Part shown: piece after piece, positions 1 through 8,659 of the stretch
How positions within the stretch are numbered: position 1 is the first letter of the stretch
Layout of the letters: every line of letters begins with the position of its first letter
IMG/VR virus record: IMGVR_UViG_2681813273_000011
Strand: one strand, 5' to 3'
From: a virus
Taxonomy: Duplodnaviria > Heunggongvirae > Uroviricota > Caudoviricetes
Length of the DNA stretch: 8,659 nt
Notes under the pieces: generated by a model
Database searches by the model: none
The model's input: the letters and a program-made list of their open reading frames with translations, nothing else
What the model was told of the DNA's origin: nothing
Translations under genes and position numbers: made by a program

Positions 1-44
1 ATTATCTGAACATAAAACACTATCAATAAGTTGGAGTCATTACC
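1..44. mobile_element. IS1 terminal inverted repeat; element body lies off the left edge of the window
   Basis: Bases 1-44 (attatctgaacataaaacactatcaataagttggagtcattacc) match the IS1 end GGTAATGACTCCAACTTATTGATAGTGTTTTATGTTCAGATAAT in reverse complement, as recalled from memory. Flanking sequence starts at 45. Confidence 0.85.
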
Positions 45-347
45 CGATATCCTGCTGAGAACATAAACACCCACGGATCGAGGCGTACGCTATCATGTTG
101 CTGTGCACCGCCCAGTTTATAATTGGCGATGGTATCGATATCCATGTACCACACTGACATGTTTTAAAAAATGCAATAAGACATTGTATCTGAAAGAAAA
201 AACAGGATTTTGAGGCGCTTTTTCATACCGTTTTCCGTGTTTTTAACTGCCTGATTTTATTGAAATCTTTTTTAGTTTTGCAGAAAGGATTTTTTGCTCG
301 ATCGCTTTAATTTTATACATTCCTGATAACGGAAATTTTTTTGCCCG

Positions 348-377
348 TTGACAGTTTTTGTTCTCCGGGGCTATATT
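348..377 (+). promoter_or_regulatory. sigma70-like promoter upstream of the rha-family gene
   Basis: TTGACA at 348-353, 18-bp spacer, TATATT at 372-377. Predicted start near 384-385, giving a ~235-nt leader before the ATG at 620. Confidence 0.45.
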
Positions 378-439
378 CCTCACACAACCGCAAAATCGGT
401 TGTCGGGATTGGCGTCTCGGATAACATCACAACGCATAG

Positions 440-459
440 CCGCGTTTGCGGTTTTTTTT
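440..459 (+). terminator. Terminator-like or attenuator hairpin inside the rha leader
   Basis: ccgc-gttt-gcgg short stem-loop followed by T8 (452-459). An upstream accgcaaa (388-395) is complementary to tttgcggt (445-452), so an alternative pairing is possible. The stem is short, so strength is uncertain. Confidence 0.3.
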
Positions 460-558
460 GCGTTAAGCATTGCCACATTCGCATTATGGTGGGGCGTGCA
501 GGGGCGGAGAAATCCGCGCCGGGTTTTGTGATGACCGGTTACGCCAACCCTGTACGTC

Positions 559-608
559 TCACCACCTCCCTGATTGGCGTCAGAGGTGGTGATCATCCAA
601 TTAATTGG
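559..608 (+). promoter_or_regulatory. 10-bp inverted repeat plus 12-bp perfect palindrome overlapping the rha ribosome-binding site; candidate operator or translational control element
   Basis: tcaccacctc (559-568) and gaggtggtga (583-592) are exact reverse complements around a 14-nt loop. ccaattaattgg (597-608) is a perfect palindrome ending in the GGAG Shine-Dalgarno (607-610). Confidence 0.35.
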
Positions 609-619
609 AGTCATCACAT

Positions 620-1177
620 ATGAATACAGCTATAACTTTTTCTAACGAGTCACCAAAAGTCTTTTTCAAAGATGGTCGCCTGGTTACCACCTCTCAAGCT
701 GTTGCCGACTACTTCGATAAACAACATAAACACGTTTTAGCTAAGATTGACACACTCGACTGCTCTCCCGAATTTACATCAGCCAACTTTTCGGCCGATG
801 TTCAGACTGTCGAAATTGGCAACGGCGCAGAACGTGAATCACGATGCTACCTGATCACAAAAGACGGCTTCATGTTCCTCGTAATGGGATTTACTGGCAA
901 AAAAGCAGCCAGACTAAAAGAAGCTTACATTGAAAAATTTAACGCAATGGAAGAAGAACTCCACAAACGTCCTCCTGCAGCACAAAACTCCCCCGCCCCA
1001 AATAATGGATGCGCATTACTGATCCACTTCGATAAACACGGTCAGGTCGAGTTCACAGAAAAAGTCCCCGCCGATGCGATGGTATGCACTCTGGAACGGT
1101 TTAAATTTTATCTGGAGCAACATGGGTGGATCGTTGCCCGTAAAGAACAATTGGTGGAAAGGTTGATGCGGTTTTAA
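620..1177 (+). CDS. Phage regulatory protein, Rha family (antirepressor-like)
   Basis: ORF track frame 605..1177. I place the start at ATG 620 because GGAG sits 9 nt upstream, giving MNTAITFSNESPKVFFKDGRLVTTSQAVADYFDKQHKHVLAKIDTL. The N-terminal region resembles the Rha family as I recall it. Stop TAA at 1175-1177. Confidence 0.75.
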   Translation: MNTAITFSNESPKVFFKDGRLVTTSQAVADYFDKQHKHVLAKIDTLDCSPEFTSANFSADVQTVEIGNGAERESRCYLITKDGFMFLVMGFTGKKAARLKEAYIEKFNAMEEELHKRPPAAQNSPAPNNGCALLIHFDKHGQVEFTEKVPADAMVCTLERFKFYLEQHGWIVARKEQLVERLMRF

Positions 1178-1303
1178 TGAATGCAAAACCCCGGATGATC
1201 ACCGAGGTTAATTTTATCGAGCGTGATTGCCGCTAATCGCCATCGCTCTGATTGAGCGTAAATCATTCAGGTTATTCAGTTCTTCCTTCTGCTCTCGCTG
1301 ACG

Positions 1304-1478
1304 TCAATAAATCCCATCATTGCGATCAACCTCATCCTTAACCATTGATGCGAGCAGTTCTTCCAGTTTCTGCGCTGACAGCTTTACCTGGTGATCTTCA
1401 GCATCTTCCCGGGCTATTGTGGTTCGCGCAGTGGCTGATTTTGCTGACATCACCACAGGGGGCAGACGGACCATTGAA
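1304..1478 (-). CDS. Hypothetical small protein (about 57 aa), convergent with rha
   Basis: Minus-strand ORF (track 1304..1585). A plausible start is the ATG at 1478 with GGAGG about 10 nt upstream (MVRLPPVVMSAKSATARTTIAREDAEDHQVKLSAQKLEELLASMVKDEVDRNDGIY). No recognisable family. Confidence 0.25.
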
Positions 1479-1540
1479 CCATGGCCTCCGGAACAAATAA
1501 GGGCAAAAATAACAACCACTATCGAAAGCTCACAAACTAA

Positions 1541-1574
1541 CCGCAGCACGTTCCTGCATACGACGTGTCTGCGG
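1541..1574. repeat. Conserved hairpin element, copy a (imperfect); likely terminator downstream of the minus-strand tfa remnant
   Basis: ccgcagcacg - 13-nt loop - cgtgtctgcgg. Same family as the hairpins at 3968-4000, 5868-5900 and 4707-4739, with a conserved loop (ttcYtgcWtaMga). Confidence 0.5.
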
Positions 1575-1588
1575 CATAATCCCAATGA

Positions 1589-1822
1589 TTACTCCCTGAC
1601 AGGATTTGCAGGCCACTCAATATCAGGTGCAGTTGATGTATCAACACGATTCAACAATACCCGATATTTATTCCATGCCTCCAGCAACGATCTTTCTTCC
1701 TCCGTTGCGATTTCCAGATCTACAGCATCCTGCAGTGGCGCAATATACTCACTAAATTCCTGGATGTAGAACTGTGTGGTGACGGTCTTCCAGCCATTCG
1801 GCTCCTGCTGTATCGAAGCATA
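1589..1822 (-). pseudogene. tfa: Tail fibre assembly protein (Tfa) C-terminal remnant, no start codon
   Basis: Minus-strand frame reads ...[61 protein letters not shown]. This aligns with the C-terminus of the intact tfa' in this window (...[45 protein letters not shown]). An in-frame stop lies upstream (plus-strand cta at 1823-1825). Confidence 0.65.
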
Positions 1823-1885
1823 CTAGGCTATTTCAATATCGCTATGCTGCGGCAGCATTTAACCCCTTGTAATTCATCGCCATAA

Positions 1886-1914
1886 TTGATTTAATTCACA
1901 AATAAAACTATAAT
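1886..1914 (+). promoter_or_regulatory. sigma70-like promoter of methyltransferase cassette, copy 1
   Basis: TTGATT (1886-1891), 17-bp spacer, consensus TATAAT (1909-1914) directly abutting the ATG at 1915. Confidence 0.5.
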
Positions 1915-2366
1915 ATGGTGAAATTAATGAAAAAAAACACAGATGATGGGGCTAAAATTTACACACCACTTACCCTAAAGCTTTATGACTGGTGGGTTTT
2001 GGGAGTATCAAATCGGCTTGCATGGGGATGTCCTACAAAGGAACACCTTCTTCCACACTTTCTGGAACATTTAGGTAACAACCATCTGGATATTGGTGTT
2101 GGAACTGGGTTTTACCTTACTCACGTACCTGAGAGTAGTCTGATATCTTTAATGGATTTGAACGAAGCTAGCCTGAACGCGGCATCTACAAGGGCTGGGG
2201 AATCAAAAATTAAACATAAAATTAGCCATGATGTTTTTGAACCTTATCCCGCGGCGTTACATGGTCAATTTGATTCCATTTCCATGTTTTACCTTCTTCA
2301 CTGCCTGCCTGGAAATATATCTACAAAAAGCTGTGTAATACGCAATGCGGCGCAGGCCTTAACTGA
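1915..2366 (+). pseudogene. Class I SAM-dependent methyltransferase, copy 1, truncated after codon 150 by an IS110-family fragment
   Basis: Identical to copies 2 and 3 through 2366, then diverges. The remainder of track ORF 1915..2529 is read-through into antisense IS sequence. Confidence 0.8.
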
Positions 2367-2987
2367 ACCCCATGAACCAGAAGAAACGATTTCAGACGTT
2401 GCCTTGCATGCCGTAAATCATCGCGGGCAGATGCCCATGCCCGGGCCAAATCCCGGAATGCCTCATCTTCAATGCCGGGTACGTAGACAGCAGAAAGATC
2501 TCCTGCACGCAGTGAACGCACAAGTCTGATGGCATCACGGCGATCGGTTTTAACCCGCTCCCCCGGTTTTTTCGGGATAAGTGAGGGGGCGCAGACCATG
2601 CAGTCAAAACCGGATTTCACCAGCCGACGATAAAGTCCATAACCACAGGGCCCCGCTTCATAAACGATACTGACCTGCGATGACTTTGACCTGAGACGTT
2701 TACAAAGATTCTGAATATCAGTAGGTGATGTGCCAATTTTACCCATCAGTTCAACAGGTTCTGAATTGATAGCATAAGCGACAGTAATCGATTCTTTGTG
2801 AACATCTAACCCGACGTACAATGTGTTATTGTTGTTCATGCTGGCCTCCGTGGTGGAAATACCGGGGTGTAGCAACAGCTCACCCATGCGGCTCTGACAA
2901 CGATGTTAACCCGCGTTAAATATCCCACGTTGGCCAGCATCTGTCTCACGGAAAGTCATACTGCCTTACATTGTGTCTGGTTCTTCC
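2367..2987 (-). mobile_element. IS110-family insertion sequence fragment: 5' non-coding leader (2840-2987) plus N-terminal recombinase domain (2367-2839)
   Basis: Minus-strand ORF starting MNNNNTLYVGLDVHKESITVAYA... with KTDRRDA motif is typical of the IS110-family DEDD transposase N-terminal domain. ATG at 2839 with GGAGG 5 nt upstream. About 157 codons remain before the junction with the methyltransferase at 2366/2367. The right boundary at 2987/2988 is inferred from where homology to the other tfa remnants resumes. Confidence 0.75.
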
Positions 2988-3199
2988 GGCCACTCAATAT
3001 CAGGTGCAGTTGATGTATCAACACGGTTCAGCAACACCCGATACTTCTTCCAGGCTTCCAGCAACGAGTTTTCTTCCTCCGTTGCGATCTCCAGATCTAC
3101 AGCATCCTGAAGTGGCGCAATATGCTCACTGAATTCCTGGATGTAGAACTGTGTGGTGACGGTCTTCCAGCCATTCGGCTCCTGCTGTATCGAAGCATA
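2988..3199 (-). pseudogene. tfa: Tfa C-terminal remnant, copy b; its 3' end is replaced by the IS110-family leader
   Basis: Minus frame ...[50 protein letters not shown], then reads into IS sequence. Differs from copy a at 13 positions across roughly 150 bp (1611-1760), then is identical towards the methyltransferase. Confidence 0.65.
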
Positions 3200-3262
3200 C
3201 TAGGCTATTTCAATATCGCTATGCTGCGGCAGCATTTAACCCCTTGTAATTCATCGCCATAA

Positions 3263-3291
3263 TTGATTTAATTCACAAATAAAACTATAAT
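3263..3291 (+). promoter_or_regulatory. sigma70-like promoter of methyltransferase cassette, copy 2
   Basis: TTGATT, 17-bp spacer, TATAAT (3286-3291), identical to copy 1. Confidence 0.5.
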
Positions 3292-3960
3292 ATGGTGAAA
3301 TTAATGAAAAAAAACACAGATGATGGGGCTAAAATTTACACACCACTTACCCTAAAGCTTTATGACTGGTGGGTTTTGGGAGTATCAAATCGGCTTGCAT
3401 GGGGATGTCCTACAAAGGAACACCTTCTTCCACACTTTCTGGAACATTTAGGTAACAACCATCTGGATATTGGTGTTGGAACTGGGTTTTACCTTACTCA
3501 CGTACCTGAGAGTAGTCTGATATCTTTAATGGATTTGAACGAAGCTAGCCTGAACGCGGCATCTACAAGGGCTGGGGAATCAAAAATTAAACATAAAATT
3601 AGCCATGATGTTTTTGAACCTTATCCCGCGGCGTTACATGGTCAATTTGATTCCATTTCCATGTTTTACCTTCTTCACTGCCTGCCTGGAAATATATCTA
3701 CAAAAAGCTGTGTAATACGCAATGCGGCGCAGGCCTTAACTGATGATGGAACTCTATACGGAGCCACAATTCTTGGCGATGGAGTTGTGCACAATAGCTT
3801 CGGTCAAAAACTGATGCGCATTTACAATCAGAAAGGCATCTTTTCAAACACAAAAGATTCCGAAGAAGGCTTAACACATATACTCTCAGAGCATTTCGAG
3901 AATGTTAAAACCAAGGTTCAAGGTACTGTAGTAATGTTTTCCGCTTCAGGGAAAAAATAG
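3292..3960 (+). CDS. Class I SAM-dependent methyltransferase (222 aa), substrate unknown
   Basis: ORF track 3292..3960. Contains a Rossmann-fold motif I (LDIGVGTGF), an acidic residue in ISLMDLNE, motif II-like FDSISMFYLLHCLP and motif III-like LTDDGTLYGATIL. I see no DPPY/NPPY or C5-cytosine motifs, so it is probably not a DNA methyltransferase. An alternative start is the ATG at 3304. Confidence 0.75.
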   Translation: MVKLMKKNTDDGAKIYTPLTLKLYDWWVLGVSNRLAWGCPTKEHLLPHFLEHLGNNHLDIGVGTGFYLTHVPESSLISLMDLNEASLNAASTRAGESKIKHKISHDVFEPYPAALHGQFDSISMFYLLHCLPGNISTKSCVIRNAAQALTDDGTLYGATILGDGVVHNSFGQKLMRIYNQKGIFSNTKDSEEGLTHILSEHFENVKTKVQGTVVMFSASGKK

Positions 3961-3967
3961 CATCCAA

Positions 3968-4000
3968 CCGCAGCACGTTCTTGCTTAAGACGTGCTGCGG
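3968..4000. terminator. Conserved hairpin between the convergent methyltransferase and tfa remnant; probable bidirectional terminator
   Basis: Perfect 10-bp inverted repeat ccgcagcacg / cgtgctgcgg around a 13-nt loop, 8 nt after the methyltransferase stop. The minus-strand side is followed by a T-rich tract. Confidence 0.5.
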
Positions 4001-4005
4001 CATAA

Positions 4006-4095
4006 TCCCAATGATTACTCCCTGACAGGGTTCGTAGGCCACTCAATATCAGGTGCAGTTGATGTATCAACACGGTTCAGCAACACCCGATACTT
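4006..4095 (-). pseudogene. tfa: Tfa extreme C-terminal remnant (about 28 codons), fused to the pin pseudogene
   Basis: Minus frame ...[27 protein letters not shown] with stop (plus-strand tta) at 4006-4008. Homology to copy b ends near 4095. Confidence 0.6.
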
Positions 4096-4341
4096 TTTCT
4101 AGGCTTCCACCACCAGCACGACAAGATGCCGCATACAGTGCCCCAGTCAGTCCAGTTTTCAGACAACCAGTGCGTCACCTTTTTGAAGGCGCTTTAAAGC
4201 ACGTTTTAATCCAGGTCGGCCTGTCCTTGTTCCGCTTAATTTATCTTCAAATATTTGTTCATATCCTGCACAAACAAGAGCGTTTCGTTGCAGGTCTGTA
4301 TTCTGGTCATTTGTTGATACCCTTACATAGCCAATCAGCAC
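4096..4341 (-). pseudogene. pin: Serine DNA invertase (Pin/Gin/Hin family) N-terminal pseudogene
   Basis: GTG start at 4341 with GGGAG upstream. Reads (M)LIGYVRVSTNDQNTDLQRNALVCAGYEQIFEDKLSGTRTGRPGLKRALKRLQKGDALVV*, where the stop replaces the Trp of the conserved VVWKLDRLGRS (tgg to tga). A second in-frame tga follows, and homology ends after about 82 codons. Confidence 0.8.
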
Positions 4342-4395
4342 GCTGAATCTCCCGTCCAAAAGCACAAATCATGCCATGCAGGCCAGAAACCGCCA

Positions 4396-4406
4396 TTATC
4401 TAAAAC
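4396..4406. other. Isolated pix/gix left half-site at the repeat-unit boundary
   Basis: ttatctaaaac is identical to the left half of the full site at 6296-6321. Identity with the downstream copy ends at 4406/4407, one base before the 2-bp core. Confidence 0.55.
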
Positions 4407-4706
4407 AAGATAAAAAGAGACCGAACACGATTCCTGTTTTCGTCAACAAACAATAAAACCCTTTAAAATTAATGCGTTAAATAAATTTACGTTCATCTTT
4501 TAATCCCTGACACGTACCATTGCATATTAATACATTCAACCAGTTACCATTTTTTTCGAGTTTTTTAGAGAAATTTTCGGGAATATTTCAGGTCAATCCA
4601 TGCAGACGCAAGCAATTCCTGTATTGAATAATTCCGTAGCAATTATGTAAAATCATCTCCGGCTGATTTTCATTCAAACTCGCGCTATCGAACATCCATC
4701 AGCCAG

Positions 4707-4739
4707 CCGTGGCACGTTCTTGCATACGACGTGCTACGG
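4707..4739. repeat. Stand-alone copy of the conserved hairpin element in AT-rich DNA
   Basis: ccgtggcacg - ttcttgcatacga - cgtgctacgg: a 10-bp stem with one G-T pair and the same loop family as the tfa-associated hairpins. Followed by a T-rich tract. Confidence 0.45.
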
Positions 4740-4863
4740 TTTCCTTTACGATTTGGGGTTGCGACTTTACCTCTATTGATAATGCATTCCGGCAGAACGT
4801 TCAAATATGAAGTACGATGTTTAACTAACCGAAAAACAAGAACAATACGGTGCAAGCAAGCTA

Positions 4864-4986
4864 TGAGGTAGCCTGAGTTTAACGGACACTCCTTCCTGAA
4901 ATAGAATGGCATCAGAAGGAGCTAATAATGAGCAGAAAAACCCAACGTTACTCTAAAGAGTTCAAAGCCGAAGCTGTCAGAACGGT
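4864..4986 (+). mobile_element. IS3-family (IS600-like) left end, truncated after 123 bp
   Basis: Starts TGAGGTAGCCTGAGTTTAACGGACACTCC..., identical to 8613-8659. An orfA start (ATG 4928, MSRKTQRYSKEFKAEAVRTV) matches my recollection of IS600 OrfA. The sequence switches abruptly at 4986/4987 to the tfa-remnant repeat. Confidence 0.7.
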
Positions 4987-5099
4987 TCATCCAGATCTAC
5001 AGCATCCTGAAGTGGCGCAATATGCTCACTGAATTCCTGGATGTAGAACTGTGTGGTGACGGTCTTCCAGCCATTCGGCTCCTGCTGTATCGAAGCATA
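4987..5099 (-). pseudogene. tfa: Tfa C-terminal remnant, third copy, 3'-truncated at the IS600-like junction
   Basis: Identical to 3087-3199 of copy b apart from the SNP at 5100 noted under the 1900-bp repeat finding. It begins at ccagatctacag directly after the IS fragment. Confidence 0.55.
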
Positions 5100-5162
5100 C
5101 CAGGCTATTTCAATATCGCTATGCTGCGGCAGCATTTAACCCCTTGTAATTCATCGCCATAA

Positions 5163-5191
5163 TTGATTTAATTCACAAATAAAACTATAAT
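5163..5191 (+). promoter_or_regulatory. sigma70-like promoter of methyltransferase cassette, copy 3
   Basis: Identical TTGATT - 17 bp - TATAAT arrangement. Confidence 0.5.
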
Positions 5192-5860
5192 ATGGTGAAA
5201 TTAATGAAAAAAAACACAGATGATGGGGCTAAAATTTACACACCACTTACCCTAAAGCTTTATGACTGGTGGGTTTTGGGAGTATCAAATCGGCTTGCAT
5301 GGGGATGTCCTACAAAGGAACACCTTCTTCCACACTTTCTGGAACATTTAGGTAACAACCATCTGGATATTGGTGTTGGAACTGGGTTTTACCTTACTCA
5401 CGTACCTGAGAGTAGTCTGATATCTTTAATGGATTTGAACGAAGCTAGCCTGAACGCGGCATCTACAAGGGCTGGGGAATCAAAAATTAAACATAAAATT
5501 AGCCATGATGTTTTTGAACCTTATCCCGCGGCGTTACATGGTCAATTTGATTCCATTTCCATGTTTTACCTTCTTCACTGCCTGCCTGGAAATATATCTA
5601 CAAAAAGCTGTGTAATACGCAATGCGGCGCAGGCCTTAACTGATGATGGAACTCTATACGGAGCCACAATTCTTGGCGATGGAGTTGTGCACAATAGCTT
5701 CGGTCAAAAACTGATGCGCATTTACAATCAGAAAGGCATCTTTTCAAACACAAAAGATTCCGAAGAAGGCTTAACACATATACTCTCAGAGCATTTCGAG
5801 AATGTTAAAACCAGGGTTCAAGGTACTGTAGTAATGTTTTCCGCTTCAGGGAAAAAATAG
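5192..5860 (+). CDS. Class I SAM-dependent methyltransferase (222 aa), copy 3
   Basis: ORF track 5192..5860. Differs from copy 2 by one residue (K to R near the C-terminus). Confidence 0.75.
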   Translation: MVKLMKKNTDDGAKIYTPLTLKLYDWWVLGVSNRLAWGCPTKEHLLPHFLEHLGNNHLDIGVGTGFYLTHVPESSLISLMDLNEASLNAASTRAGESKIKHKISHDVFEPYPAALHGQFDSISMFYLLHCLPGNISTKSCVIRNAAQALTDDGTLYGATILGDGVVHNSFGQKLMRIYNQKGIFSNTKDSEEGLTHILSEHFENVKTRVQGTVVMFSASGKK

Positions 5861-5867
5861 CATCCAA

Positions 5868-5900
5868 CCGCAGCACGTTCTTGCTTAAGACGTGCTGCGG
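5868..5900. terminator. Conserved hairpin, probable bidirectional terminator (copy of 3968-4000)
   Basis: Identical 10-bp inverted repeat with 13-nt loop. Confidence 0.5.
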
Positions 5901-5905
5901 CATAA

Positions 5906-5995
5906 TCCCAATGATTACTCCCTGACAGGGTTCGTAGGCCACTCAATATCAGGTGCAGTTGATGTATCAACACGGTTCAGCAACACCCGATACTT
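5906..5995 (-). pseudogene. tfa: Tfa extreme C-terminal remnant (copy of 4006-4095)
   Basis: Identical to 4006-4095. Confidence 0.6.
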
Positions 5996-6241
5996 TTTCT
6001 AGGCTTCCACCACCAGCACGACAAGATGCCGCATACAGTGCCCCAGTCAGTCCAGTTTTCAGACAACCAGTGCGTCACCTTTTTGAAGGCGCTTTAAAGC
6101 ACGTTTTAATCCAGGTCGGCCTGTCCTTGTTCCGCTTAATTTATCTTCAAATATTTGTTCATATCCTGCACAAACAAGAGCGTTTCGTTGCAGGTCTGTA
6201 TTCTGGTCATTTGTTGATACCCTTACATAGCCAATCAGCAC
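5996..6241 (-). pseudogene. pin: Serine DNA invertase (Pin/Gin/Hin family) N-terminal pseudogene, adjacent to the pix site
   Basis: Identical to 4096-4341, with the same two premature stops. The GTG start at 6241 lies 55 bp from the pix site, as expected for a gin/pin gene next to its crossover site. Confidence 0.8.
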
Positions 6242-6295
6242 GCTGAATCTCCCGTCCAAAAGCACAAATCATGCCATGCAGGCCAGAAACCGCCA

Positions 6296-6321
6296 TTATC
6301 TAAAACCTCGGTTTACGAGAA
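6296..6321. other. pix/gix-type 26-bp crossover site (12-bp half-site, 2-bp core, 12-bp half-site)
   Basis: ttatctaaaacc-tc-ggtttacgagaa. Differs at about 3 of 26 positions from the Mu gix sequence TTATCCAAAACCTCGGTTTACAGGAA as I recall it. Lies between pin and the tail-fibre segment, and the fibre reading frame (NLGLRE...) opens inside it. Confidence 0.75.
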
Positions 6322-7080
6322 CTCGGCACAAGCGGGGAGAAAATACCGTTACTCAGTACAGCGAATACCTGGACTAATCGACAAACATTCAGCGGTGGCC
6401 TTTCTGGTGAACTATCCGGCAATGCTTCTACAGCTGCAAAATTAAAAACTGCCAGGAAAATAAGCAATGTGGCTTTTGATGGTTCCTCCGATATCACATT
6501 AAAAGCAAGTCATGTTGGTGCGTTTGCCTTAGGGAAAACAGGAAGCACCGTTGCGAATGATAAAGCAGTTGGATGGAACTGGAGTAGCGGAGCCTATAAC
6601 GCAACTATTAGTGGTGCATCAACGTTAATTATTCATTTTTATATGGGAGAAGGAAGTTGTCCTGCAGCTCAGTTTCGGATTAATTATAAAAATGGCGGTA
6701 TTTTTTATCGTTCAGCCCGTGATGGTTATGGTTTTGAAGCCGACTGGTCCGAATTTTACACCACCAGAAAACCTTCAGCAGGAGATGTTGGTGCACTGCC
6801 GTTATCTGGTGGTCAACTGAATGGTGCACTGGGTATCGGAACATCCAGTGCTCTTGGCGGTAATTCGATTGTATTGGGTGATAATGACACGGGCTTTAAA
6901 CAAAAAGGCGATGGTAATCTGGATGTTTATGCTAATAACGTCCATGTTATGCGCTTTGTCTCCGGAAGCATTCAAAGTAATAAAACCATAAATATTACGG
7001 GACGTGTTAATCCCTCGGATTACGGTAACTTTGATTCCCGCTATGTGAGAGATGTCAGACTTGGCACACGAGTTGTTTAG
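6304..7080 (+). CDS. Tail fibre variable C-terminal segment (Sv-like), silent orientation, no start codon; ends at an in-frame TAG
   Basis: Open frame from inside the pix site: NLGLRELGTSGEKIPLLSTANTWTNRQTFSGG... to ...RYVRDVRLGTRVV*. ORF track 6469..7080 is the same frame. Homology to the other fibre C-terminus continues for 49 codons past the TAG, to a TAA at 7228-7230. Confidence 0.7.
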   Translation, partial: NLGLRELGTSGEKIPLLSTANTWTNRQTFSGGLSGELSGNASTAAKLKTARKISNVAFDGSSDITLKASHVGAFALGKTGSTVANDKAVGWNWSSGAYNATISGASTLIIHFYMGEGSCPAAQFRINYKNGGIFYRSARDGYGFEADWSEFYTTRKPSAGDVGALPLSGGQLNGALGIGTSSALGGNSIVLGDNDTGFKQKGDGNLDVYANNVHVMRFVSGSIQSNKTINITGRVNPSDYGNFDSRYVRDVRLGTRVV

Positions 7081-7232
7081 ACCATGAAGAAAGGCGTGAT
7101 GTATGAAAAATCAGGCCATGTAATCACGGGGCTTGGTATTATCGGTGAAGTCGATGGTGATGATCCGGCAGTATTCAGACCAATACAAAAGTTAATTAAC
7201 GGAACATGGTATAACGTATCGCAGGTATAATC

Positions 7233-7766
7233 ATGCAGCATTTAAAAAACATTGTCGCAGGTAATCCAAAAACCGTTGAACAATACCAGCTAACAAAGAA
7301 TTTTGATGTTATCTGGTTATGGTCCGAAGATGGAAAAAATTGGCATGAGGAATTAAAAAACTTTCAGGAGGATACAATAAAACTGGCTTACACAGTTGAG
7401 GGAATAATTATTGCTATAGACAAGGATGTATCAGCAATTAATCCAGAAGGTTTAAGTGTCGTTGAGTTGCCTGATATTACAGCAAATCGCCGGGCTGATA
7501 TTTCGGGCAACTGGATGTTCAAAGATGGTGCGGTGATAAAGCGAACTTATACCGAGGAAGAGCAAAGGCAACAAGCGGAAAATGAAAAGCAGAGCCTGCT
7601 GCAGCTCGTCAGGGATAAAACCCAGCTGTGGGACTCTCAGCTACAGCTGGGCATCATTTCCGATGAGAATAAACAAAAATTAACCGAGTGGATGCTCTAT
7701 GCGCAGAAGGTTGAATCCACAGACACCTCCAGCCTGCCAGTAACGTTTCCCGAACAACCAGAATGA
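7233..7766 (+). CDS. tfa: Tail fibre assembly protein (Tfa/U-like chaperone)
   Basis: ORF track 7233..7766, [22 protein letters not shown]... N-terminus is similar to the convergent tfa' and the C-terminus is divergent. The ATG lies 2 nt after the extended fibre stop. Confidence 0.85.
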
Positions 7767-7769
7767 GAG

Positions 7770-7799
7770 AAGGCCCGCTATCGGGCCTTAATTTTTATT
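7770..7799. terminator. Bidirectional rho-independent terminator between the convergent tfa genes
   Basis: 8-bp GC-rich stem aaggcccg / cgggcctt with 4-nt loop (7770-7789), followed by a T-rich tract (aatttttatt). Confidence 0.65.
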
Positions 7800-8322
7800 C
7801 AGGCTTTTGTGGCCATTCAGGATTTGCCGTATCCACACGGCTGACCAGAACACTGTAGCGTTCCCATGCTTCCAGTCGTGTGCGTTCCTCGTCTGTTGCC
7901 ATATTCAGCCTGACAGCTCGTTCCAGCGGCTGGATGACTGATTCAGCTTCGGAAAGCAATGCGGCCTTTTGTGATTCGGCCTGTTGTTGCAGTTCCTGTT
8001 CTGTATATTCCCTCTTTACTACTTTACCATCCAGAAACATCCATTTTCCGTTATTGTCTGCGTGACGATTTGCCGTAATATCAGGAACTTCAACTATGCT
8101 TAGCCCTTCAGGATTAATAGTTGAAACGTCTTTACTGACAGCAACGATGATGTTGTTCTCATCGTAAGCAATTTTTATGGTGTCTGGCTGAAAATTCTTT
8201 TGTTCCTCATACCAGTTTTTGCCATCTTCGCAAAAGAGCCATACCACGCCCGCTTTTTTAGTTAGCTGGTATTGTTCCGGTGTTTTCGGATTCCCGGCCT
8301 TAATATTTTTCAGGTGCATCAT
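7795..8322 (-). CDS. tfa: Tail fibre assembly protein (Tfa'), alternative copy
   Basis: ORF track 7795..8358. Start chosen at ATG 8322 ([22 protein letters not shown]...) by alignment with the plus-strand tfa and its position just after the upstream fibre stop. Confidence 0.85.
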
Positions 8323-8323
8323 C

Positions 8324-8611
8324 TTAAACACTCCCCACGTTGTACCATATTCCCCCAATCAATTTCTGAATTGGCCTTCTGGCAACAGTGTCGACAATAT
8401 CATCCGCATTGCTGTTAATTGCGGCTGTTAAAACATAACCTGACGCATCGCCAAAGCCGTAGTCGCGCCATACGTTTTTATATTCAATGCTGCCAAGACG
8501 AATATCCCGAACGACATGATTATGCAGCCATGTGCTTAACCAGTTGTTTTCCCACACTGAACCATAAATATCGCCACTAGACGCAACTTGCGCACCACTT
8601 CCCAGCGCAAA
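8324..8611 (-). CDS. Tail fibre variable C-terminal segment (S'v-like); 5' portion cut off by an IS600-like insertion
   Basis: Minus frame ...[95 protein letters not shown]. The C-terminus parallels the plus-strand fibre segment (VRDVRLG / [12 protein letters not shown]). The first 9 codons of track ORF 8324..8638 are IS-derived. Confidence 0.75.
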
Positions 8612-8612
8612 T

Positions 8613-8659
8613 TGAGGTAGCCTGAGTTTAACGGACACTCCTTCCTGAAATAGAATGGC
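8613..8659 (+). mobile_element. IS3-family (IS600-like) left end; element continues off the right edge of the window
   Basis: Identical to the first 47 bp of the fragment at 4864. Confidence 0.7.

Follow-up and report, generated by a model that had tools for sequence, protein, structure and literature searches.

The ybcY-type methyltransferase cassette of coliphage tail-fibre modules and its three copies in one Caudoviricetes contig

The closest described system is a small group of genes in DLP12, a cryptic prophage of Escherichia coli K-12, which in strain MG1655 (locus L102) comprises tfaD (b0561), ybcY (b0562, a pseudogene on the opposite strand) and tfaX (b0563). In this study, we analyzed an 8,659-nucleotide (nt) stretch of DNA from a tailed phage (IMG/VR record IMGVR_UViG_2681813273_000011, Caudoviricetes), the whole of which is referred to here as the window, and which carries three copies of a gene for a class I S-adenosylmethionine (SAM)-dependent methyltransferase, two of them intact (B and C) and one truncated (A). 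A preliminary description, made from the letters alone, had found the arrangement unfamiliar; it is already known, being the tfaD-ybcY-tfaX cassette of the DLP12 prophage, and the gene with its promoter was found in 3836 of 5426 complete E. coli genomes (71%; at least 95% nucleotide identity), with a median of one copy and a maximum of four. Complete Shigella genomes were not included in this collection.

The gene in the window is 96–98.9% identical to ybcY of K-12 strains TG1 and MG1655, with few substitutions and a 2-nt gap, and the gene, its orientation to both tfa fragments, the promoter and the hairpin are the same in DLP12 as in the window. The two loci differ in that K-12 ybcY has become a pseudogene by a 2-nt deletion, whereas the window has two intact copies, in that the −10 hexamer is TATAAC in K-12 and a perfect TATAAT in the window, and in their neighbours, which are appY and ompT in DLP12 and a dead invertase with an invertible fibre segment in the window. 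The inactivation of the K-12 gene was seen in the alignment at 5153–5807 of the MG1655 locus. Another point of comparison is provided by the morons found at the tail-fibre end of coliphages (lom, bor, ompT, and type III effectors such as ipaH), which are likewise self-contained, with their own promoter and hairpin. Like them, the ybcY-type unit has transcription independent of the late operon, a lower GC content (~40%) and a position after stf/tfa; unlike them, it encodes a cytoplasmic enzyme, where the others encode surface proteins or secreted effectors. In the literature, ybcY was found in a promoter listing (PMC3946193) and in a mention of no phenotype under Hha overexpression, and searches on moron, methyltransferase and tail-fibre terms, on phage ev243 and on CssrB returned nothing relevant.

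The unit is a portable lysogenic-conversion (moron) cassette of ~1.1 kb, of the ybcY type. For our reading as a whole, namely that such a cassette encodes a partnerless enzyme acting on a substrate other than DNA, most likely a small molecule or lipid head group, and that its three copies in the window came about by recombination and insertion sequence (IS)-associated deletions and not by selected amplification, we estimate a probability of about 75%.

The cassette and its distribution

The preliminary description was right in counting three copies of the gene, two of them intact (open reading frames (ORFs) 3292–3960 and 5192–5860 intact, ORF 1915–2529 truncated), and in giving each its own consensus-like promoter, since TTGATT-17-TATAAT, a predicted sigma-70 promoter, stands directly upstream of the gene at all three sites. 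Copies B and C encode 222 amino acids (aa) each as annotated, with K215R as the sole difference between the proteins, and the protein of copy B is 100% identical to that of phage ev243. The ORF of copy A has its first 150 codons (to 2366) in common with the other copies and then runs into unrelated foreign sequence, a fusion to which no recorded protein corresponds. Fragments of tfa, antisense to the gene, lie on both sides of each copy, according to the RefSeq annotation of a single-copy locus in E. coli sequence type 131 (ST131; L001) and to precomputed Pfam Caudo_TAP matches. The upstream one is a C-terminal-half fragment, and the downstream one is a tfa 3′ end, which has a hairpin in common with the methyltransferase gene; the tfa remnants had been rightly noticed before, but only those directly upstream of each copy, which were described as 3′ remnants. 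The same bracketing by tfa fragments on the opposite strand was found in three RefSeq-annotated loci (L001, L004 and L102) and at 80/80 viral loci. The hairpin at 3968–4000 has an 11-bp G+C-rich stem with no T tract, and it was not reported by the terminator scan. An antisense ORF of 45–51 aa, probably spurious, runs over the methyltransferase 3′ end and hairpin (3918–4073 and 5818–5973, both on the minus strand); RefSeq names it a hypothetical protein, and in K-12-type records it is called "nucleocapsid protein."

The −10 hexamer of the predicted promoter ends at 3291 and directly abuts the annotated ATG. As the transcription start would then be expected at about 3297–3299, 6–7 nt further on and past this ATG, translation would begin at the ATG at 3304, an option that had already been raised and is the better one. 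Four further observations point in the same direction: PHROG 2132, a profile of 218 positions, aligns from residue 5; 27 of 29 aligned homologues begin at M5, among them all homologues outside E. coli, which begin at this residue; 5 of 20 nonsynonymous polymorphisms fall within the first 27 nt; and the 2-nt deletion in K-12 ybcY removes exactly the second ATG. Translation therefore probably starts at the second ATG, which, as judged from these sequence comparisons, would give a nearly leaderless message and a protein of 218 aa. The orthologous K-12 site, TTGATT-17-TATAAC, is included with an H-NS flag, in the ybcY/tfaX spacer, in a list of RpoD-holoenzyme sites obtained by genomic SELEX (systematic evolution of ligands by exponential enrichment) (PMC3946193).

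The cassette is widely spread among phages. The protein is present at 99% identity or more in fifteen phage records, and in the lambdoid phage ev243 the gene follows J-lom-stf and is antisense to those genes. A relative is encoded by 167 viral contigs of IMG/VR, of which the best 80 were surveyed; these are all 99–100% identical, and a single copy with the left tfa fragment, promoter, gene, hairpin and tfa 3′ end was present in 80/80. In the ST131 locus (L001), the single copy sits between an ompW remnant and the tail-fibre module, in the order ash, Rha, DUF4376 remnant, tfa remnant, methyltransferase, tfa remnant, invertase N-terminal remnant, fibre C-terminus, tfa, tfa and full fibre gene. 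Elsewhere the cassette adjoins tail modules of P2-like (L008), Mu-like (L013) and lambdoid (L001, L009 and L014) type. The earlier view of the gene as a self-promoted moron carried in tail-fibre modules is supported by ev243, by these other modules and by the viral loci.

Inactivated copies occur in K-12 and in an ST131 strain. Of the 94 full-length copies in the lineage shared by E. coli and its phages, 90 are intact, and the ratio of nonsynonymous to synonymous polymorphism (pN/pS) is 0.26, and this purifying selection indicates that the gene is functional. The two tfa fragments that bracket it, in the same orientation, could serve as homology arms for recombination into any tfa-bearing tail-fibre module of a coliphage, which would explain the presence of the cassette in lambda-like, P2-like and Mu-like tail modules, and tfa fragments that travel in this way hint at how morons might pass from one tail module to another, unrelated one.

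Several minor observations concern the cassette in other records. In L005–L007 (9675–12628), apparently Shigella chromosomes, an ipaH gene (LRR and NEL E3 ligase domains) lies ~300 nt past the methyltransferase stop, and two morons, the cassette and ipaH, thus occupy one slot. Two contigs of metagenome-assembled genomes in GTDB, binned as "Bacillus sp." (L023) and "Planococcaceae" (L032), carry a 100% identical cassette with tfa fragments, which is almost certainly contamination of the metagenome bins. A 265-aa E. coli variant (P0001) has an internal tandem duplication of 43 aa in the methyltransferase, and a Shigella sonnei protein (P0080) carries the C-terminal two-thirds of the enzyme behind a tail-fibre N-terminus; both variants again point to the cassette as a rearrangement hot spot.

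The enzyme and its relatives

Pfam assigned the window protein to Methyltransf_12, 23, 25 and 11 (Methyltransf_12 at 37.6 bits, cut-off 30), and all sources named it only "class I SAM-dependent methyltransferase." The AlphaFold2 model (mean predicted local distance difference test score (pLDDT) 90, predicted template-modelling score (pTM) 0.87) shows a Rossmann-type sheet of seven strands with an N-terminal helical lid, and motif I (DxGxGxG; D59–G65) and D81, the acidic residue that closes strand 2, both invariant, agree with the class. NCBIfam gave matches to CpaM and RquA far below threshold only, and PHROG 2132 has no known function attached. The best Foldseek match in the PDB was PmtA, a bacterial phosphatidylethanolamine N-methyltransferase (8ys9; E = 8.5e-12, TM-score 0.60–0.67, 15% identity), followed by juvenile-hormone acid methyltransferase (JHAMT), phosphoethanolamine methyltransferases and natural-product methyltransferases, and there was no DNA methyltransferase among the fold matches listed. 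Sequence and profile searches of the PDB did not find PmtA and gave only weak matches to JHAMT and UbiG. On the evidence of Pfam, PADLOC and Foldseek, the gene product had been correctly recognized as a stand-alone class I SAM methyltransferase that is not DNA-methyltransferase-like, and likewise no restriction or other partner gene was found beside it among the ORFs of the window or in the RefSeq annotation of the single-copy locus L001.

From the fold and context, the most likely substrate in the lysogen is a small molecule or lipid head group, which the enzyme would methylate without a partner. R-type PmtA (8ys9), phosphoethanolamine methyltransferases, JHAMT and UbiG/Coq5 all have the Rossmann-type fold with an N-terminal helical lid seen here, and PmtA is of similar size (~210 aa); sequence identity to these small-molecule and lipid methyltransferases is only 12–21%. 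R-type PmtA has an N-terminal catalytic Tyr, a His/Ser pair that binds phosphate, and a C-terminal Arg-rich helix that binds the membrane, with Tyr10, His117 and Ser120 as catalytic residues (PMC11446283). The window enzyme has invariant Y16, Y24 and H129, and the modelled resemblance to PmtA is treated here as a lead only. That the YbcY family are PmtA-like lipid head-group N-methyltransferases, or other enzymes modifying the envelope or a metabolite, used for lysogenic conversion, is a speculation to which we give little credence. If true, it could mean, for example, methylation of phosphatidylethanolamine in E. coli and Shigella membranes, for which K-12, with its broken copy, would be a natural null. 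To our knowledge, E. coli is not known to produce methylated lipids of the phosphatidylethanolamine type.

The search for relatives returned 2296 in all. Across Enterobacterales, Aeromonas and Shewanella, the alignment has a mean column identity of 65%, and relatives in Pseudomonas, Proteus, Erwinia, Pasteurellaceae and Xanthomonadales are still 50–57% identical. In Salmonella, the relative is a stand-alone chromosomal gene on at least 1000 contigs, placed between a gene for a PMT_2 glycosyltransferase and genes for a cytochrome-b-type protein, a DUF218 protein and a large DEAH-type helicase, and in Yersinia it is a stand-alone gene in a small variable region. To compare neighbourhoods, ORFs within 4 kb of the gene were clustered for 80 species-representative loci. 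No partner gene conserved across genera was found among these 80 loci, and synteny was limited to single genera; the clusters that cross genera include, by reading of the sequences, members of two generic families, an SDR and a LysR regulator, and one Pseudomonas neighbour looks CorA-like. Sequence of tfa beside the methyltransferase was found only in the E. coli, Shigella and E. albertii copies, which are at least 99% identical. The association with tail-fibre and invertase loci proposed in the preliminary description holds for these copies, whereas at the 71 loci of 50–75% identity outside E. coli, Shigella and E. albertii there was no match to tfa or other E. coli tail genes and a single weak invertase match, the gene occurring as a single copy away from such loci. 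We read the gene as a chromosomal, partner-independent small-molecule or lipid methyltransferase that was captured once by coliphages.

The structure itself is a very common prophage cassette, already annotated in thousands of genomes and here rearranged within one rich in IS elements. The remaining interest lies in the substrate of a widespread, conserved and phage-borne enzyme under purifying selection, whose family occurs in ~70% of E. coli genomes and on at least 1000 Salmonella contigs and reaches, at 50–57% identity, as far as Pseudomonas. As K-12 is a natural null, gain-of-function tests would be easy.

Origin of the three copies

The preliminary description had spoken of a triplicated cassette. 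There are indeed three copies, but their spacings are unequal (1377 and 1900 nt) and their left and right flanks differ. Window positions 1–2366 and 4990–8612 run collinear with two single-copy loci, L013 and L014, at 99.8–99.9%, and copies A and C are therefore the left and right sides of one resident copy. Positions 2360–4000, in turn, match the Shigella-type loci L005–L007 at 99.6% over ISSso6, tfa fragment, methyltransferase and ipaH, and positions 2360–4406 match two Shigella-type assemblies (L010 and L012), each with two or three copies on one contig, at 99.7–99.8%. The left tfa flanks of copies A and B differ at 16 of 116 positions, whereas only 2 of 1317 positions distinguish the bodies of copies B and C, from which it follows that copy B is itself a recombinant.

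All five joints are different (2366/2367, 2964/2965, 4406/4407, 4863/4864 and 4989/4990), and the equal head-to-tail units with identical junctions of a tandem amplification array were not found. At 2366/2367, the interior of the gene is fused to an internal point of an ISSso6 fragment, so named by RefSeq and collinear with the full element in L006 from 9070; the tfa fragment resumes at 2965. Copy A had been described as cut by an IS; it is truncated, but by fusion to an internal point of the fragment and not by insertion of a complete element, and its 3′ part is absent from the window. The non-coding 5′ end of the fragment (2888–2964, minus strand) could encode part of a bridge RNA, and RefSeq calls its relatives "IS110 family RNA-guided transposase." At the other end of the window, a second IS600 left end (8613–8659) repeats 47 nt of the fragment at 4864–4989, and the window ends there. 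The Rfam family CssrB, a Shigella small RNA (sRNA), matches at full length across the IS600 joint (4708–4886, minus strand; 121 bits, cut-off 76). The 5′ end of the match is 23 nt within the left end of IS600, and the 3′ end coincides with a hairpin akin to the one that follows the methyltransferase gene; the sRNA looks like a read-out transcript from IS600.

Considering these joints, we propose that dispersed copies of the cassette recombined with one another and that deletions associated with ISSso6 and IS600 also took part, in a genome of the Shigella or enteroinvasive E. coli type; copy B would have arrived with an ISSso6-linked flank, such as is found beside ipaH elsewhere in Shigella chromosomes. 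IS600, ISSso6, the ipaH-linked paralogues and the CssrB match all point, at the level of sequence, to Shigella or enteroinvasive E. coli as the source. In the independent assembly L012, a first, complete copy is followed by a longer ISSso6 fragment, a tfa fragment and a second copy. A related arrangement is therefore found elsewhere, and the window seems to have arisen from one of this kind by further deletion. Dispersed cassette copies would in this respect resemble IS elements, as substrates for rearrangement of Shigella genomes.

It was suggested in the preliminary description that the copies were kept under dosage selection, in which case more methyltransferase would benefit the lysogen or phage through an anti-defence, host-modification or toxin-related function. 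Such adaptive amplification would be in keeping with the two intact copies with intact promoters and so few differences, with the two or three copies per contig in L010 and L012, with up to four copies in some E. coli genomes, and with the purifying selection (pN/pS 0.26). We consider it unlikely, given that the units differ in length and meet at joints that are each different and contain IS fragments or sequence of a foreign prophage, that copy A was destroyed, that one copy per prophage is normal (median one per E. coli genome, single at 80/80 viral loci), that two of the copies in NZ_CP082831.1, the one genome checked, lie ~2.5 Mb apart, that K-12 and an ST131 strain have inactivated copies, and that PADLOC found no defence family. 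The three copies could also have come about if reads from dispersed, near-identical cassettes and IS elements had been misjoined during assembly, the real genome having separate single copies; an IS600 end is where the window stops, a joint between a gene interior and an IS interior, as at 2366/2367, is not a transposition product, and the exact arrangement was absent from all 5426 complete E. coli genomes. An artefact of this kind is nevertheless improbable, since the block 2360–4406 recurs in the independent assemblies L010 and L012, which also show two copies parted by an ISSso6 fragment, the substitutions that distinguish the copies fall in consistent blocks, and assemblers normally collapse near-identical repeats and do not expand them.

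Orphan DNA methyltransferases are common in phages, and the enzyme could be imagined to methylate phage or host DNA for restriction evasion or regulation, like the Dam-like enzymes of phages. Only one observation leans this way, a weak PADLOC match to mad2, a methyltransferase component of MADS (E = 0.0033, 14 bits), which was the sole match and not significant. Neither a (D/N/S)PP(Y/F/W) nor a PC catalytic motif occurs in the sequence, the model of this 218-aa protein has no extra domain and hence no target-recognition domain, there is no partner nuclease, Pfam and NCBIfam give generic domains of small-molecule type only, and in Salmonella, Yersinia and Pseudomonas the orthologous gene stands alone on the chromosome; a DNA methyltransferase is thus very improbable. 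A role in defence or restriction was rejected as well, the generic 14-bit match being all that PADLOC offered and a partner gene being absent. Some points do weigh against the reading we prefer, of a portable cassette with a partnerless, non-DNA enzyme multiplied by recombination and IS-associated deletions. Recombination through the tfa fragments is deduced from distribution; the finding of the exact arrangement in 0/5426 complete E. coli genomes leaves some room for assembly error; the near-identity of copies B and C (2/1317) indicates that recent duplication or gene conversion played a part, with a fitness benefit of two intact copies possible; and the isoelectric point of the family (pI 8–9, mildly basic) is compatible with a nucleic-acid substrate.

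Features of the window and its surroundings

The features are collected in Table 1.

Table 1. Features of the 8,659-nt window, with the evidence for each.
Feature	Position	Strand	Evidence and remarks
DUF4376 (tail-fibre-assembly-like) remnant left of copy A	1214..1492	-	RefSeq pseudogene, L001 7084-7362
tfa C-terminal-half fragment upstream of copy A	1587..1856	-	RefSeq tfa pseudogene in L001
Promoter, copy A	1886..1914	+	TTGATT-17-TATAAT; identical to 3263-3291
Methyltransferase copy A	1915..2366	+	truncated after codon 150; ORF 1915-2529 diverges past 2366
ISSso6 (IS110 family) fragment, internally cut	2367..2964	-	5′ end and N-terminal 188 transposase codons; Pfam DEDD_Tnp_IS110
tfa C-terminal-half fragment upstream of copy B, diverged allele	2965..3233	-	equivalent 89-aa gene in L005-L007 has Caudo_TAP match
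Promoter, copy B	3263..3291	+	promoter scan; TTGATT-17-TATAAT; 10/12 consensus matches
Methyltransferase copy B	3292..3960	+	intact; annotated 222 aa; probable true start ATG 3304 (218 aa)
Hairpin between methyltransferase gene and convergent tfa 3′ end, copy B	3968..4000		-23 kcal/mol; z-score -4.9
tfa 3′-end remnant downstream of copy B	4015..4098	-	RefSeq pseudogene, L001 8508-8591
Pin-type serine invertase N-terminal remnant	4159..4365	-	Pfam Resolvase N-terminal domain, E = 4.6e-15; RefSeq: recombinase without C-terminus
Left half of invertase crossover site	4396..4406	+	comparison with full site 6296-6321; joint immediately after
Other-prophage edge sequence	4404..4863	+	adjoins pphA in E. 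coli; ipaH3 locus in an enteroinvasive strain
Left end of IS600, 126-nt fragment	4864..4989	+	RefSeq: matching sequence is IS3-like IS600-family transposase
tfa fragment upstream of copy C, shortened by IS600 fragment	4990..5133	-	ORFs, locus alignment
Promoter, copy C	5163..5191	+	identical to 3263-3291
Methyltransferase copy C	5192..5860	+	intact; K215R; resident copy of the locus
Hairpin downstream of copy C	5868..5900		sequence same as 3968-4000
tfa 3′-end remnant downstream of copy C	5915..5998	-	RefSeq/locus alignment
Invertase N-terminal remnant, second copy	6059..6265	-	ORF, Pfam, alignment
Complete 26-bp crossover site, TTATCTAAAACCTCGGTTTACGAGAA	6296..6321	+	1 match in window, 0 in 200 shuffles
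Invertible-type tail-fibre segment	6322..8612		Pfam gp37_C, Caudo_TAP; inverted repeat I1; RefSeq L001

To the right of copy C, the locus resembles the invertible segments of the Din family (Mu G/Gin, P1 C/Cin and e14 P/Pin) in its 26-bp site, which we take to be of the hix/gix type, in its opposed pairs of fibre C-terminus and tfa, and in the adjoining invertase gene. In the segment at 6322–8612, a fibre C-terminus and tfa on the plus strand face a tfa and fibre C-terminus on the minus strand. Unlike in those systems, only the first 60–68 codons of the invertase are present, and the window has one full site; the methyltransferase cassette is no part of the classical Mu, P1 and e14 systems. 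With so short an invertase remnant, the segment cannot invert on its own; its orientation is probably fixed as long as no invertase is supplied in trans.

Of the 12 bases in the left crossover half-site, 11 precede the joint at 4406/4407, which lies at the crossover core and fuses the half-site to pphA-side sequence. From the sequence at this point, aberrant recombination by an invertase with a secondary site may be suspected. The pphA-side partner is a poor site and the joint is one base off the simple prediction, and an invertase-made joint was accordingly set aside as an explanation and kept as a lead.

Some Rfam matches were recorded near these features. The family IS009, which we take to be a candidate E. 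coli sRNA, matches the tfa fragment upstream of copy B (3009–3212, minus strand; 130 bits) and, at 110.8 bits and under the gathering cut-off of 117, the one upstream of copy A (1632–1835, minus strand); this "RNA family" is here in essence a piece of a tfa gene that points away from the methyltransferase promoter. At the left end of the window, isrK (384–458, plus strand; 72 bits) and C4 antisense RNA (482–569, plus strand; 76 bits) both score above the gathering score. They lie in and just upstream of the region collinear with ash of L001, with the Rha gene (605–1177) downstream, and presumably resemble the pair of immunity RNAs of the P1/P7 type.

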